NCBI GenBank assembly: GCA_029856155.1
Contig: JAHQWL010000076.1
Coordinates: forward strand, 1 to 20,878
DNA length: 20,878 nt
Direction of reading: 5' to 3'
Source of the DNA: Promethearchaeia archaeon
GTDB lineage: Archaea; Asgardarchaeota; Lokiarchaeia; Sigyniarchaeales; SOKP01
The notes under the pieces were generated by a model. It saw only the letters and a program-made list of their open reading frames with translations, was not told the origin of the DNA and did no database searches. Below are positions 1,769-20,155 of this stretch, in pieces. The position numbers and the translations under genes are program-made. Positions within the stretch are counted from its first letter, which is position 1; every line of letters starts with the position of its first letter.

Positions 1769-2515
1769 ATGTTAGAAAATCGCTATTTAATTTGTGAGGA
1801 AGAAATCCCTATTATTGTGCCTAAAAGGATTATGGTTTTTGCTGGCCATCCCGACGATGAGTTAGTATCTTGTGGGGGTACGATCTTAAAATATCAAAAA
1901 CTAGGATCAGAAATTATAATTGTTATCGCTACTTTTGGCTTAGGAGGCTACGCCAAGGAAAAACATAAAGACAATATTGCTAAAAGAAGGAAAAATGAAT
2001 TAGAGCTAGTAAAGAAGTTTTTACAAAGTGAGATTATTGAGTTGGGCTATTCTGATTTACAAATTGATAGAACGAAAATCTCTCGGATTACTAATCTCAT
2101 CCGTGATTATAAACCTCAGGTAATTTTATTACCTCATTATTCAGATTTTCACCGTGTACATCGAAATTTATCATTAATCACACGAGAAGCAATATATCAC
2201 TGCTCTACAGGTAAAGCATATGCGGGACATATGAGGAGTTGGATTCCACTGGGTGTTTATTATTATGAATCTCCATCATGTAAATTTCAATACATAGAAG
2301 GATCTGTTTTTGTTATAGTGAATATAGAAGATTATTGGGAAAAGAAAAAAGAAATTTTTAACCATGTTTATACATCTCAAAAAGAAGTTTTAGAGCGTGT
2401 TTTAGATTGGGCAGAAGATACAGCAATTCTAAGGGGAAATGAAATAAATGCTGCTTTTGGTGAAGCATTTATGCCTGAGACCACATATACTCCATTAAAA
2501 ATTCTATTATTATAA
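1769..2515 (+). CDS. PIG-L/LmbE-family zinc-dependent de-N-acetylase
   Basis: N-terminal VFAGHPDDELVSCGGTI (HPDDE metal motif), RRxEL, IRxYKPxVIL, second His motif DFHRVH, SQ, and C-terminal RG...GEAF. Confidence 0.9.
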   Translation: MLENRYLICEEEIPIIVPKRIMVFAGHPDDELVSCGGTILKYQKLGSEIIIVIATFGLGGYAKEKHKDNIAKRRKNELELVKKFLQSEIIELGYSDLQIDRTKISRITNLIRDYKPQVILLPHYSDFHRVHRNLSLITREAIYHCSTGKAYAGHMRSWIPLGVYYYESPSCKFQYIEGSVFVIVNIEDYWEKKKEIFNHVYTSQKEVLERVLDWAEDTAILRGNEINAAFGEAFMPETTYTPLKILLL

Positions 2516-2608: not shown

Positions 2609-3730
2609 ATGGGAAATCTAACAATAGTTCTTGATATTGGTCAGTTCAGCACTAAAATTGGATTTGCGGGAGAGGATACACCATCTCAAGTTTTTCTAAC
2701 AATGGTTGGAAAACCTAAATATAAAAGTGTAGATGTCAGTTATGAATCTAAGCAATCTCGTGAAGATGAAATCTATGTAGGAGATGAAATTCAATCAATT
2801 GGATTATATAAGATTTTTCATCCTATTGAGAAAGGAATTGTAGTGGATTGGACTCATTTTGAGAATATTATTGATTATATTTTTTACAACTTGAGAGTAG
2901 ATCCCACTCTTGTCAATGTATTATTCGCAGTACATCCATTATTTCCATATAATGACTTAGAGAAAATATTTAAGTTATTTTTAGAAAGATATCAATGTAT
3001 GGCGTTTTATCCAGTATTAGATTCAATGCTAACTCTATACTCCGGTGGGTTCCAAACAGGATTAATAGTAGAAATAGGAGATAGCAATACAAGAATTGTC
3101 CCGATTTATGAAGGATACAAGTTAGAGCATGCAGTAAGAATCTTAGATATTGGTGGAAAAGTACTAACTCATCATATGGAACAGATTTTAGAATCTATTG
3201 GATGGTCAGTCGATTCTTCTATTCGCAGAGAACTAGTAAGAGTTTTGAAGGAAAAAGCTTGTTTTGTATCTTTAGATTATAAAGAAGATCTAAAGCGAAG
3301 TGAACAGTATGAGAAAGAATATTCCCTTCCTGATGGTTCTACAATCTCACTTAATAAAGAAAGATTTATTATACCAGAATTATTGTTTAAACCTACTTCA
3401 GAATTAGAAGAAGATGCATTACAGGTAGCTATCATAGATGTAATTGAAGCTTGTGATTTAGATATTCGTACTGAGTTATTAAATAATATTTTTCTTTCGG
3501 GTGGTTCATCTATGTTTCCTAATTTAAAATCGCGTATCTATCAAGAATTAGAATTAGAGTTAGCAAGACGAAAGAAAAAGAATTTAGGAATTAGAATTAT
3601 CGCTCCAATGGAACGAACATTTTCTGTGTGGATTGGAGGATCAATTTTAGCAATGATTCCCGAATTTTCTCAAAATTGGATTACTCGCGCAAAATATTTT
3701 GAGGAGGGAATACCACCTAATTTACTTTAA
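2609..3730 (+). CDS. Actin-family protein, divergent Asgard actin/Arp-like paralog, 373 aa
   Basis: Colinear with actin over its full length: VLDIGQFSTKIGFAGEDTP (phosphate-1), YVGDE, PIEKGIVVDW, VEIGDSNTRIVPIYEGY (phosphate-2), KEKACFV, YSLPDG, ERFIIPELLFKP, CDLDIR, LSGGSSMFP (adenosine) and IIAPMERTFSVWIGGSILA. Confidence 0.96.
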   Translation: MGNLTIVLDIGQFSTKIGFAGEDTPSQVFLTMVGKPKYKSVDVSYESKQSREDEIYVGDEIQSIGLYKIFHPIEKGIVVDWTHFENIIDYIFYNLRVDPTLVNVLFAVHPLFPYNDLEKIFKLFLERYQCMAFYPVLDSMLTLYSGGFQTGLIVEIGDSNTRIVPIYEGYKLEHAVRILDIGGKVLTHHMEQILESIGWSVDSSIRRELVRVLKEKACFVSLDYKEDLKRSEQYEKEYSLPDGSTISLNKERFIIPELLFKPTSELEEDALQVAIIDVIEACDLDIRTELLNNIFLSGGSSMFPNLKSRIYQELELELARRKKKNLGIRIIAPMERTFSVWIGGSILAMIPEFSQNWITRAKYFEEGIPPNLL

Positions 3731-3843: not shown

Positions 3844-4188
3844 ATGAAGATGGATGAATTTGAAGAAAATAAGTTTTATAAACCAAGTTATTCCCATTTG
3901 TTCAATAGAATTAAGGATATCAAAACACCAATAAAAAATGAAATATTAATTGCCCTCCTCGATGGTCATTGGCATTCTGAATTAGAAATAATAAGAGTTA
4001 CTAAAAGGCAACATGGATTCATTGGAAGTGTTACTTTGGGTACAATGGTAACTTCATTGAATCATTATATAAAAAATAACTATCTGCAGAAGAAGATAGT
4101 GAATGGTAAGCTTTATTATAAGATATCAGATAATTACGTTGGACTTACGAGAGCAGCATATAGGTTTGATGCAAATGATTTTCTTTAA
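3844..4188 (+). CDS. Small hypothetical protein, probable winged helix-turn-helix fold
   Basis: Pattern of helix (PIKNEILIALLDG), short strand/helix (WHSELEIIRV), helix (SVTLGTMVTSL) and beta-hairpin wing (YLQKKIVNGKLYYKIS) typical of wHTH proteins. The fold is inferred by eye. Confidence 0.7.
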   Translation: MKMDEFEENKFYKPSYSHLFNRIKDIKTPIKNEILIALLDGHWHSELEIIRVTKRQHGFIGSVTLGTMVTSLNHYIKNNYLQKKIVNGKLYYKISDNYVGLTRAAYRFDANDFL

Positions 4189-17046: not shown

Positions 17047-18537
17047 CTAAATTCCATAAATAGGATAGTATTTATCTTCAACGTATTTAATAAAATAATC
17101 GGGATTTAAATCTTCTCCAGTAATCTTCTGAATTAAATCGGGAGCTCTATAGATTTTACCATATTGATGCACTTTTTCTTTTAGATAATTTAAAAGGTTA
17201 GAGAATTCTCCTTTCTCATAATCTTGGGGTAAAGAAGGGTTTTCTTTTAAAGCATGATTATATATTTGAGCAGCATAAAGATTTCCTAAAGAATAACTAG
17301 GGAAATAACCGAATCCACTTGTCCAATGTACATCTTGTAGTACACCTAGAGCATCATTCGGAGGTACTATTCCTAATAATTCCTCCATTTTTGTATTCCA
17401 TAGTTCTGGCAATTCACTTGCTTGAAGATTATCTTCGATTATCATTTTCTCTAGTTCAAATCGTAGTATAATATGTAATCCATAAGTCACCTCATCAGCA
17501 TCTACTCGGATAAATGATGGTTGTACTACATTTATAGAACGATGAAATTCTTCCATTGGATAATTTTTCAAATTTTCCGGAAAAGTTTTTTGAAAGATAG
17601 GATACCAATACGTCCAAAATTCCTTACTACGCCCAACTACATTTTCCCACATTCGAGATTGAGATTCATGAATCCCCATAGAACACCCCTCAGCTAATAA
17701 TGTATCATGAATCTCTTCTTTAAATCCCATTTGGTAAAGAGCATGTCCACATTCATGAATTGTGGAAAATAAGCAATCAGGAAGAAAGTCTTCACGTATT
17801 CTAGTGGTTATCCTTGTATCTATAGATGATAATGAAGTAGTAAAAGGGTGTGTTGCTTTGTCTTGTCGTCCGGTATTAAAATCAAAATTGAGTTTCTTAA
17901 TTATTTCAAGACTTAATTGCCATTGTTTTTCAGCATCATAATGTTTTTTTAAGATTGATTGATTAGGTTTATCAGACATACTATTTAGCTTATTGACAAT
18001 CTTTACTAATTTAGGTTTCAATCCATTGAAGACTTTTAAGATGTAGTCATAAGTAACACCTGGTTCGAACAAATCTAATAAAGTTGAGTATAATGTTGGA
18101 CCTTTATCAAGTTTCTCGGCGAATTCTATTCTTAATTTAATAATTTTCTCGAGATAAGGCTTGAATATTGAAAAATCACTTTTTTCTCTTGCTTTTTCCC
18201 ATTCTATATGCCCCAATGACGAAATTTTAGCAATTTTAGCCACTAACTCATTAGGAATTTTGATTGCTTGATCATATTCTCTTTTTGCTTCTCTTATCAT
18301 CGCTAAATCTATTTCACTAAGGCTTTCTAATTTTTCAGCTTCTTTTATCAATTTGCCAGTTTTATCTGATTTTACTCTGGAATGAATTAAATTTTGCATT
18401 AGTGCTAATTGCTCAGCTCTTCCTTTCACGGAACCCTTAGGCATATTAACTTGTTGATCCCAACTTAAAAGAGCTCCAATATAAGATAATCTCATTATTT
18501 CATTAAAATATTCCCAAAGTTCTTTCATTGCGTTCAT
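17047..18537 (-). CDS. Carboxypeptidase, peptidase family M32 (CP Taq/PfuCP-like), paralog 1
   Basis: LLSWDQ, HPF, DTRITTR, HECGH (HExxH), HESQS, IRVDADE, H..LRFELE, G.LQDVHW and GYFPSYSLG. Confidence 0.97.
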   Translation of the reverse strand: MNAMKELWEYFNEIMRLSYIGALLSWDQQVNMPKGSVKGRAEQLALMQNLIHSRVKSDKTGKLIKEAEKLESLSEIDLAMIREAKREYDQAIKIPNELVAKIAKISSLGHIEWEKAREKSDFSIFKPYLEKIIKLRIEFAEKLDKGPTLYSTLLDLFEPGVTYDYILKVFNGLKPKLVKIVNKLNSMSDKPNQSILKKHYDAEKQWQLSLEIIKKLNFDFNTGRQDKATHPFTTSLSSIDTRITTRIREDFLPDCLFSTIHECGHALYQMGFKEEIHDTLLAEGCSMGIHESQSRMWENVVGRSKEFWTYWYPIFQKTFPENLKNYPMEEFHRSINVVQPSFIRVDADEVTYGLHIILRFELEKMIIEDNLQASELPELWNTKMEELLGIVPPNDALGVLQDVHWTSGFGYFPSYSLGNLYAAQIYNHALKENPSLPQDYEKGEFSNLLNYLKEKVHQYGKIYRAPDLIQKITGEDLNPDYFIKYVEDKYYPIYGI

Positions 18538-18648
18538 ATTTTAATCATTTTAGGGAGTTATTTGTAAATTATATAGAGAATGCTAATTAACGTAATACAA
18601 AAAAGTTTTTGCTTTCTAATTCAAAAACTTAATATTTTTGATGAATAG

Positions 18649-18657
18649 AAAAAAAAA
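18649..18657 (-). terminator. Oligo-T terminator candidate after the upstream M32 gene
   Basis: T9 on the minus strand 1 nt after the TAA, in the same position as the tract after the other paralog. Confidence 0.5.
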
Positions 18658-18658
18658 G

Positions 18659-20155
18659 TTATAATCTATATAGAGGGTAAAATTTCTTTTCGAGGTACTT
18701 CATAAAGTAATTAGAATTTAGGTTTTCTCCCGTTATTCTTTTTATTAAATCTGGTGCTCTAAATACAGCTCCATGTTGATGAACATTCTCTCGGACAAAA
18801 TTCAATAAATTTGAAAATTCACCTTTTTTATAGTCTTCTGGTAGATTTGGCATCTTTTTTAATGCAACATCGTACATTTGAGCTGCGTATAAAGTTCCTA
18901 GAAAATATGTTGGGAAATAACCAATCATTCCCATTCCCCAGTGTATATCTTGCAATACACCTTCTTTGTCATCTGGTGGAATGATTCCTAACAATTCCTC
19001 AAATCTAGAATTCCATATTTGCGGCAACTCACTTACTTGGATTTTTTCGTCAATAAGATCTTTTTCGATTTCAAATCGTAGTATAATATGTAATCCATAA
19101 GTTACCTCATCTGCATTTACCCTAATAAATGAAGGTTGAACTGAATTAACCGCACGATGAAATTCTTCCATAGGATAATCTTTTAAGTTTTCTGGGAAAG
19201 TCTTTTGAAAAATCGGATACCAATACATCCAAAATTCTTTACTACGCCCCACAAAATTTTCTAACATTCTTGATTGTGATTCATGGATTCCAAGTGAAGT
19301 ACCAGTACCCAATATTGTGTCATGTAGTTCTTTTTTAAAGCCCATCTCATATAGAGCATGACCGCATTCATGAATAGTTCCAAAAATACATTCATTAAGA
19401 AAATCCTCCCTTGTTCTTGTAGTTATTCGAGTATCCGTAGAAGATAATGTTGTTGTAAAAGGATGGGTTGATAGATCTTGACGTCCCGCTTCAAAGTCAA
19501 AATTCAATTTTTTTATTATTTCGAGACTAAGTTTAAATTGTTTATCTTGATCGTAGTTTTTCCGTAATATTGATTGATCAGGTTTATCAGTTGATGAATT
19601 CAATTTTTTAACAAAATCGATTAGTTTAGGCTTTATTGGATTAAAAATATTAGCGACCCAATTGTATGTTGCACCTGGTTCATATAAATCAATCAGAGTA
19701 GAATATAAATCTGGATGAGTTTCAAGTTTCCTTGCTTTCTCCCTTTGTAATTCAACTGTTTTTTCCAATAAAGGTATAAACATTTTGAAATCTTTTTTTT
19801 CTCTTGCTTTTTGCCATGTTTGTTGAGATAGTCCAGCAGTTTTTGTTATTTCCATAACTAATTCTTCTGGTAATTTTACTTCCTGTTCATAAGCTCTTTT
19901 TGCTTCTCTTAGCATTGCAGCATCGATTTCATTTAAATCTTTAAGTTTTTCAGCTTTATTAATTAATTTTTCTGCTTTTTCTGACGTTAAACGCTTGTGC
20001 ATAAGTTGTGCTATAAGTGCCAATTGTTCAGATCTACCTTCTACAGATTTATAACCCCTCATATTAACTTCCTGATCCCAACCAAGTAATGCTTGGATGT
20101 AATTCAATCTCATTATTTCAGTAAAATATTCACGAAGATCATTGATAACACTCAT
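18659..20155 (-). CDS. Carboxypeptidase, peptidase family M32, paralog 2
   Basis: LLGWDQ, HPF, DTRITTR, HECGH, HESQS, IRVNADE, QDIHW and GYFPTYFLG. Colinear with paralog 1. Confidence 0.97.
   Translation of the reverse strand: MSVINDLREYFTEIMRLNYIQALLGWDQEVNMRGYKSVEGRSEQLALIAQLMHKRLTSEKAEKLINKAEKLKDLNEIDAAMLREAKRAYEQEVKLPEELVMEITKTAGLSQQTWQKAREKKDFKMFIPLLEKTVELQREKARKLETHPDLYSTLIDLYEPGATYNWVANIFNPIKPKLIDFVKKLNSSTDKPDQSILRKNYDQDKQFKLSLEIIKKLNFDFEAGRQDLSTHPFTTTLSSTDTRITTRTREDFLNECIFGTIHECGHALYEMGFKKELHDTILGTGTSLGIHESQSRMLENFVGRSKEFWMYWYPIFQKTFPENLKDYPMEEFHRAVNSVQPSFIRVNADEVTYGLHIILRFEIEKDLIDEKIQVSELPQIWNSRFEELLGIIPPDDKEGVLQDIHWGMGMIGYFPTYFLGTLYAAQMYDVALKKMPNLPEDYKKGEFSNLLNFVRENVHQHGAVFRAPDLIKRITGENLNSNYFMKYLEKKFYPLYRL

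Follow-up and report, generated by a model that had tools for sequence, protein, structure and literature searches.

We describe an Asgard actin-related protein (ARP) that, as judged from its sequence, keeps the residues that would hold a nucleotide and has lost those that would serve hydrolysis and phosphate exit. We consider it probable that the protein is nucleotide-bound and hydrolysis-dead, or very slow, and that it has a structural or regulatory role like that of Arp4 and Arp8, rather than forming an ATP-driven filament. The gene lies in a 20,878-nucleotide stretch of DNA, hereafter the window, from a Promethearchaeia archaeon. Its features are listed in Table 1.

Table 1. The ARP gene, its diagnostic sites and its neighbours. 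Substitutions are written as actin residue > ARP residue; the own family is that of the source genome and the sister family that of Candidatus Lokiarchaeum ossiferum.
Feature	Position	Strand	Basis or occurrence
Neighbour: coiled-coil, proline-rich protein with invariant C-terminal helix, 239 aa	768..1487	+	upstream in 66/75 own-family loci; functional link putative
Neighbour: PIG-L family deacetylase	1769..2515	+	beside the ARP gene in 36/75 own-family loci and 3 sister-family genomes
Asgard ARP (373 aa), orthologous to UYP44126.1 of L. ossiferum	2609..3730	+	alignment, Pfam, tree, model
Phosphate-1 loop: D11, G13, K18 kept; S14>Q12, G15>F13	2633..2656	+	alignment; aromatic at 15 in 86/87 orthologues
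D-loop region: M44>D; no conservation at the G46 and M47 sites; length and sequence of the core (actin 41-50) vary	2714..2773	+	conservation; lowest-confidence part of the model
Sensor-loop H73>K75, drifting site (K, N, G, L, E, D)	2831..2833	+	orthologue alignment
Pro-rich loop: E107>V108, A108>H109, N111>F112, R116>L117	2930..2959	+	H109 in 119/120 close homologues
Q137>D138	3020..3022	+	codon check; Gly/Ser in 7/10 sister-family orthologues
Phosphate-2 hairpin: D154>E155, G158>S159, H161>R162; G156, D157 kept	3071..3094	+	Arg at 161 in 87/87
R177>I178, partner of N111 in actin's phosphate-exit gate	3140..3142	+	alignment; gate per PMC10643162
Adenosine loop SGG...F kept; elsewhere G182, R210, K213, E214 kept	3497..3517	+	alignment
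Four-residue subdomain 3 insert	3560..3586	+	clade alignment
Neighbour: probable winged-helix protein, 114 aa, no Pfam match	3844..4188	+	downstream in 73/75 own-family loci
Ras-family GTPase genes upstream of ARP orthologues	L081:7321-7890, L082:6066-6656, L083:8195-8779		L. ossiferum family

The first-pass annotation had drawn an actin paralogue at positions 2609-3100. This interval holds only residues 1-164 of the 373-residue open reading frame. Residues 5-367 of the full product match the Pfam Actin family (PF00022; E 9e-90). An AlphaFold model of the protein (pLDDT 89.5) superimposes on actin with Z 47 and an rmsd of 1.9 Å over 359 aligned residues. When the model was ranked against fold representatives actin came first, with Arp3, Arp4 and crenactin behind. 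The ARP is a complete actin-fold protein and shares 41% identity with the Lokiactin of its own genome.

A pseudogene or an assembly artefact was ruled out by the intact reading frame, four sources with identical sequence and a dN/dS ratio of ~0.05. Measured against 7 relatives the ratio is 0.035-0.068, indicative of purifying selection. The substitutions described below are also near-fixed among 120 close homologues (D138 in 119, R162 in 120, S159 in 120, E155 in 118 and Q12 in 116). Hence, they are neither errors nor the drift of a dying gene. The codons of D138 (3020-3022), E155, D158, S159 and R162 (3092-3094) were confirmed in the DNA. The ARP evolves far faster than Lokiactin, yet under this strong constraint, which speaks for our preferred reading. 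Thus, the ARP is 50% identical to its L. ossiferum counterpart while Lokiactin, for the same genome pair, is 91% identical. Overall, ARP identity is 50-62% in comparisons where that of Lokiactin is 88-96%.

Two alignments, one with HMMER to yeast and HC1 actin and one in α-actin numbering, bore out the substitutions that the first-pass annotation had read by eye. These are S14>Q12, H73>K75, E107>V108, R116>L117, Q137>D138, D154>E155, G158>S159 and H161>R162. Alignment to actins also upheld the retention of D11, K18, D157 and G301-G302 of the adenosine loop. Four more changes, absent from that annotation, are G15>F13, A108>H109, N111>F112 and R177>I178. In actin, catalysis has three candidate residues, Q137, D154 and H161 (PMC7221352); N111 and R177, together with H73 and G74, make up the phosphate-exit gate (PMC10643162). 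Actin and 18 Lokiactins share 176 invariant positions, 68 of which are changed in the ARP family. All six residues of the catalytic and back-door set taken from these two studies (Q137, D154, H161, R177, N111 and H73) are replaced (hypergeometric P 0.003; P 0.007 for polar sites alone). For the catalytic triad by itself, the loss is not significant (P 0.06). Conversely, all ten residues that we chose as a nucleotide-holding set (D11, G13, K18, G156, G182, R210, K213, E214, G301 and G302) are kept (P 0.006). Each is retained in 99-100% of 87 orthologues. The two counts would favour a protein that holds nucleotide without turning it over. The same genome encodes a canonical Lokiactin (G000:C4) with Q137, D154 and H161 in place, and this too speaks for our preferred reading.

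The first-pass annotation had held that the protein is not the canonical Lokiactin, and both the tree and AU tests place it outside the Lokiactin clade. In an unrooted tree built without Arp3, nuclear ARPs or crenactin, the window ARP and UYP44126.1 fall in one clade (support 100/100) with a long stem, separate from Lokiactin. Within the limits set by long branches, where long-branch pull is possible, the AU test rejects a clade of the window ARP with Lokiactins from its own order (p 0.003) or with all 18 Lokiactins (p 0.02). With the same limits, it rejects a clade with Arp2 (p 0.009), represented by a pair of almost identical Arp2-like rows that were picked out by motif.

Among 400 Asgard genomes, orthologues occur in 116 of the 134 own-family genomes and in 13 of the 14 sister-family genomes. 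No orthologue was found in the other families with the window ARP as query, and so in this sample the clade was seen in just two families of one order. Most own-family genomes without the ARP are also without the proline-rich neighbour, which hints at contigs missing from those assemblies. In L. ossiferum the orthologue corresponds exactly to record UYP44126.1 (NEF87_000411) and contains both published RT-qPCR primers. It is among three L. ossiferum homologues that cluster with ARPs and are transcribed (Rodrigues-Oliveira et al., 2023; PMC9834061). That study treats it by phylogeny and RT-qPCR only, and finds Lokiactin transcripts severalfold more abundant. Both the ARP class and one clade member are therefore already published; the window gene is a further member of the Asgard ARPs. 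In the searchable literature, where an earlier residue-level description is possible, we found neither a residue-level case for a pseudo-ATPase nor any assay for this clade. One salt-marsh RNA run (0.07 share) yielded two 151-base contigs that match the proline-rich gene and none over the ARP, and is uninformative.

The residue pattern suggests how the preferred reading would work. ATP or ADP would be held tightly, with little or no hydrolysis. Arg162 would most likely pair with the acid at actin position 154, that at 137, or both, and so occupy the space of the catalytic waters; the side-chain geometry is extrapolated from actin. Hydrophobic F112 and I178 would take the place of the polar exit gate. 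The aromatic residue at position 15 may shield the nucleotide, and F13 may have a parallel in an Arp4 tyrosine that shields ATP. There are precedents for such behaviour. Arp4, with Thr in place of Q137, binds ATP but does not hydrolyse it, and Arp8, with Glu at that site and H161>S, retains ATP and has weak ATPase activity (PMC3510490).

Self-assembly of the Lokiactin kind would also be absent, although this is a weaker expectation. It follows from a lost D-loop core and the replacement of R62, E205 and G268 (the plug glycine), beside a barbed-face groove, W-loop and D286/D288/R290 that are kept. In that case partners would dock at the barbed face, either of a single ARP subunit or of one held in a small complex. 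Conservation of the D-loop core is 0.40 in the ARP family versus 0.91 in Lokiactins, and both its length and its sequence differ even inside one genus. This difference, and the low transcript level of UYP44126.1, count for the preferred reading. M44 is lost as well. Y143, I345, L346, F352, H173 and the W-loop aromatics are kept, and family conservation is 0.80 for the W-loop and 0.75 for the 283-290 segment. R147>F and T351>E are new, near-fixed and alter the barbed-face groove; the HRxF-type C-terminus is gone. Using contact sets based on general background on F-actin, 17 of 24 barbed-face residues are kept compared with 10 of 21 on the pointed face, which is a trend and not significant (Fisher p 0.10). 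The lack of significance weighs against our reading. Lost catalysis, for its part, says nothing about polymerisation, since actin that cannot hydrolyse ATP still polymerises normally (PMC7221352).

These surfaces bear on a more specific proposal, compatible with the preferred reading, that we regard as possible without being likely. Here, the ARP would seed or cap the pointed ends of Lokiactin filaments, like Arp2/3 or Arp11 of dynactin. Its kept barbed face would take the Lokiactin D-loop, and the degraded pointed face would block further addition. The division between kept and lost residues suits this arrangement. So does the small insert of the window ARP, at a place where Arp2 and Arp3 carry longer inserts. 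Furthermore, hydrolysis-dead Arp2/3 still nucleates (PMC3587832). The proposal is weakened by the non-significant face asymmetry, by the groove changes at R147 and T351, by the rejected grouping with Arp2 and by the presence of Lokiactin without this clade in most Asgard lineages. A 2026 study of Lokiactin co-immunoprecipitation from L. ossiferum mentions, in its accessible part, no ARP among the enriched proteins (PMC13716822); this counts against the proposal, and mildly against a stable Lokiactin co-polymer.

The first-pass annotation had called the nucleotide site rewired. This is overstated and fits the own family only. The positions that are near-fixed clade-wide are Arg at 161 (87/87), an aromatic residue at 15 (86/87), Gln or Glu at 14 (~93%) and a residue other than Gly at 158. 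The set around Asp137 holds in the own family, where D138, E155, H109 and R162 are 97-100% fixed. The Asp137 and His108 pairing is otherwise found only in 3 early-branching sister-family orthologues. L. ossiferum, a 4.36-Mb closed genome and their kin carry Gly or Ser at 137, Asn at 108, Asp at 154 and Ala or Ser at 157. The L. ossiferum and 4.36-Mb-genome orthologues themselves have Gly at 137 and Ala or Ser at 157, a combination that points to relaxed catalysis rather than a new catalytic set. Position 137 is D, E, G or S across orthologues, and an essential catalytic base for the whole clade is improbable. That no single catalytic chemistry appears to be conserved here would favour the preferred reading.

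Other claims fared similarly. H73>K is real in the window ARP, but it is not a family trait; the own family has K (74%) or N (18%), and the sister family N, G, L, E or D. V159, R177 and R183 drift in the clade as well. D157, retained in the window ARP, is Ala or Ser in the sister family. This weakens the predicted nucleotide binding there and tells against our reading. The changes at E107 and R116 had been taken as compensatory. However, several orthologues have Lys at 116 beside V, I or T at 107, and so the pair is not strictly so. The subdomain 3 insert is clade-wide and strongly basic (RRKKK) in the own family only.

The own-family D/H/E/R set leaves room for a slow rewired activity, and its near-fixation, which exceeds what pure decay would predict, is a point against the preferred reading. 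Hence, we weighed a slow or partner-activated ATPase, and judge it unlikely. Asp138, held by His109, or else Glu155 would be the base, and Arg162 would supply a built-in arginine finger. On this view the clade started out with such an enzyme, and the cultured lineages lost it. The D and H pairing in the 3 early sister-family orthologues fits such a history, as does Asn108 in all 7 orthologues with G or S at 137. In its favour too, an acid at the position equivalent to 137 is the norm in MreB, ParM and Hsp70 (Glu) and in hexokinase (Asp). Arp8 likewise combines an acid at this site with low ATPase activity (PMC3510490). However, the change from D/H to G/N is one event on the tree and not independent support. 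In addition, Asp is shorter than the usual Glu or Gln, neither the exit gate nor the sensor is left, and R161 is fixed even where 137 has no acid.

A second, stable filament system, in which the ARP would form a homopolymer with new interfaces and little nucleotide turnover, seems to us improbable. In its favour, the family conserves P38, K39, Y40, G63, P243, D244 and subdomain-4 residues (0.86), no large insert would block assembly, actin itself is the nearest fold and, as noted, ATPase-dead actin polymerises. Conversely, the D-loop varies within one genus, conservation at interstrand and plug positions is low (0.62) and the transcript level of the orthologue is low. A nucleotide-free scaffold, with Q12, F13 and S159 blocking the phosphate site, would suit the bulky residues in both phosphate loops and the D157>A/S change and lost R183 of the sister family, but is very doubtful because ten nucleotide-holding residues retained at 99-100% are hard to explain without a ligand.

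Gene order gives no firm partner for the ARP. The proline-rich neighbour comprises a coiled coil at the N-terminus, a short central helix that is conserved, a ~120-aa proline-rich linker with LPPxP and a C-terminal helix ending LKKIM, which is invariant across the order. By eye, the protein is WH2-like or arcadin-2-like. Pfam hits of 20 members included no WH2 family and there was no meaningful PDB hit; the motif is so short that one may still be present. A profile of the helix matches 270 of the 400 Asgard genomes, counting weak matches outside the class at face value, and many of these genomes are without this ARP. In the sister family the proline-rich gene is unlinked to the ARP, and the link is therefore found in one family only. 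A predicted complex of the ARP, the C-terminal helix, ATP and Mg scored 0.02, which bears neither for nor against binding. A dedicated nucleation module, as gene order might suggest, was considered. It is weakened because a topoisomerase gene (65/75 own-family loci) and a histidine kinase gene (54/75) are retained about as often. The broken link in the sister family, and the frequency of the helix in lineages without the ARP, weaken it further. A promoter scan returned 25 sites versus 20.9 expected, equivalent to chance, using a bacterial model.

In 8 of 12 sister-family loci a Ras-family small GTPase gene immediately precedes the ARP orthologue in the same orientation; at one more locus it is 4 kb away. 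The best match of this GTPase in the source genome is on another contig (C68). We see a slim chance that the clade is an archaeal invention, independent of Arp2/3, in which a hydrolysis-dead ARP would seed or cap Lokiactin pointed ends and be recruited by, for example, the proline-rich neighbour or the small GTPase whose gene adjoins it in the cultured lineages. Elsewhere in the window, an 88-aa protein is encoded on the minus strand at 236-502, divergent from the proline-rich gene, and occurs in at least 35 of the 75 loci. Positions 17047-20155, also on the minus strand, hold two similar tandem genes of ~497 aa with HExGH motifs, M32 carboxypeptidase-like by eye.

The source genome has five actin-family genes: two of Lokiactin type, the window ARP, a paralogue with a Cys-rich insert and one that is very divergent. 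The second Lokiactin-type gene (L002; G000:C26:83433-84551) is 85% identical to the main copy, with intact catalytic residues and a longer branch. It is either a recent duplicate or bin contamination (5.7%). The Cys-rich paralogue (L004; G000:C52:135084-136598) is an ARP of the UYP44711.1 clade that has lost Q137 and H161 and carries a zinc-ribbon-like insert of ~125 aa near its C-terminus. In the sister family, the actin paralogues that have diverged most (L117, L118, L120 and L122, including UYP47647.1) have Arg at the H161 site in an alignment at ~20% identity, which makes this a lead only. Two further Asgard genomes (G294 contig C23 and G105 contig C8) carry tandem pairs of divergent actin-family genes (L168, L174, L176). 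The ARPC4 profile (PF05856) had no match in 5 genomes, and the positive control was likewise silent.

In 2022 the Asgard actin nucleation machinery was "yet to be discovered" (PMC9433394). The 2026 study, in its accessible part, points chiefly to gelsolins and profilins (PMC13716822). Asgard ARPs distinct from Lokiactin are evident candidates for starting or placing Asgard actin filaments, and we found no functional study of them in the searchable literature. A role in seeding or capping Lokiactin filaments, if real, would make the ARP the actin nucleator that is missing from Asgard archaea so far. A clade member is present in cultured L. ossiferum, and this makes the matter directly testable. 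The two natural states (D/H/E or G/N/D at actin 137/108/154) provide a ready comparison for the change from actin to pseudo-ATPase. The clade seems to parallel the eukaryotic ARPs in a lineage-specific way rather than to be ancestral to them, and so carries limited weight for eukaryote origins.

Among known systems, the crenactin arcade cluster with arcadin-2 (PMC5173319) similarly places an archaeal actin-family gene beside that for a protein whose conserved C-terminal helix sits on a flexible linker. For arcadin-2 binding is proven, whereas the window neighbour would be a candidate binder at most and is linked to the ARP gene in one family only. Arp2 and Arp3 are paralogues that have likewise diverged from actin; they carry an insert in subdomain 3, and their barbed face might serve as a template for a filament. 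Unlike the window ARP, they keep Q137 and H161 and hydrolyse ATP (PMC3587832); the AU test rejects a clade with Arp2, and Arp3 was outside the tree. Lokiactin (UYP47028.1; G000:C4 in the source genome) shares the fold, length, nucleotide-holding residues and Asgard-type G-x-P-K-Y before the D-loop, at ~41% identity, and the best match among solved sequences is HC1 actin (PDB 9wc4). However, Q137, D154, H161, H73, N111 and R177 are kept in 18 of 18 Lokiactins and all replaced in the window ARP. Lokiactin also has a conserved D-loop, is Asgard-wide and is ~90% identical within the order, traits not found in the ARP clade. The closest relative, UYP44126.1, shares the 100/100 clade, 50% identity, Q14, F15, R161, the subdomain-3 insert and a shortened C-terminus. 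It differs in having Gly137, Asn108, Asp154 and Ser157 where the window ARP has D/H/E/D. Its gene lies behind a Ras-family GTPase gene, while the window gene lies behind the proline-rich gene and the deacetylase. The nuclear proteins Arp4 and Arp8 (PMC3510490; PDB 3qb0, 4fo0) differ from the window ARP in sequence (24-28% identity or less), in their large inserts and in their known chromatin complex. The likeness to them is one of analogy, not orthology: an actin fold (Z 41.1 to Arp4 and 33.8 to Arp8), changed residues at 137, 161 and 73, a nucleotide that may serve as a structural cofactor and, in all likelihood, no filament.
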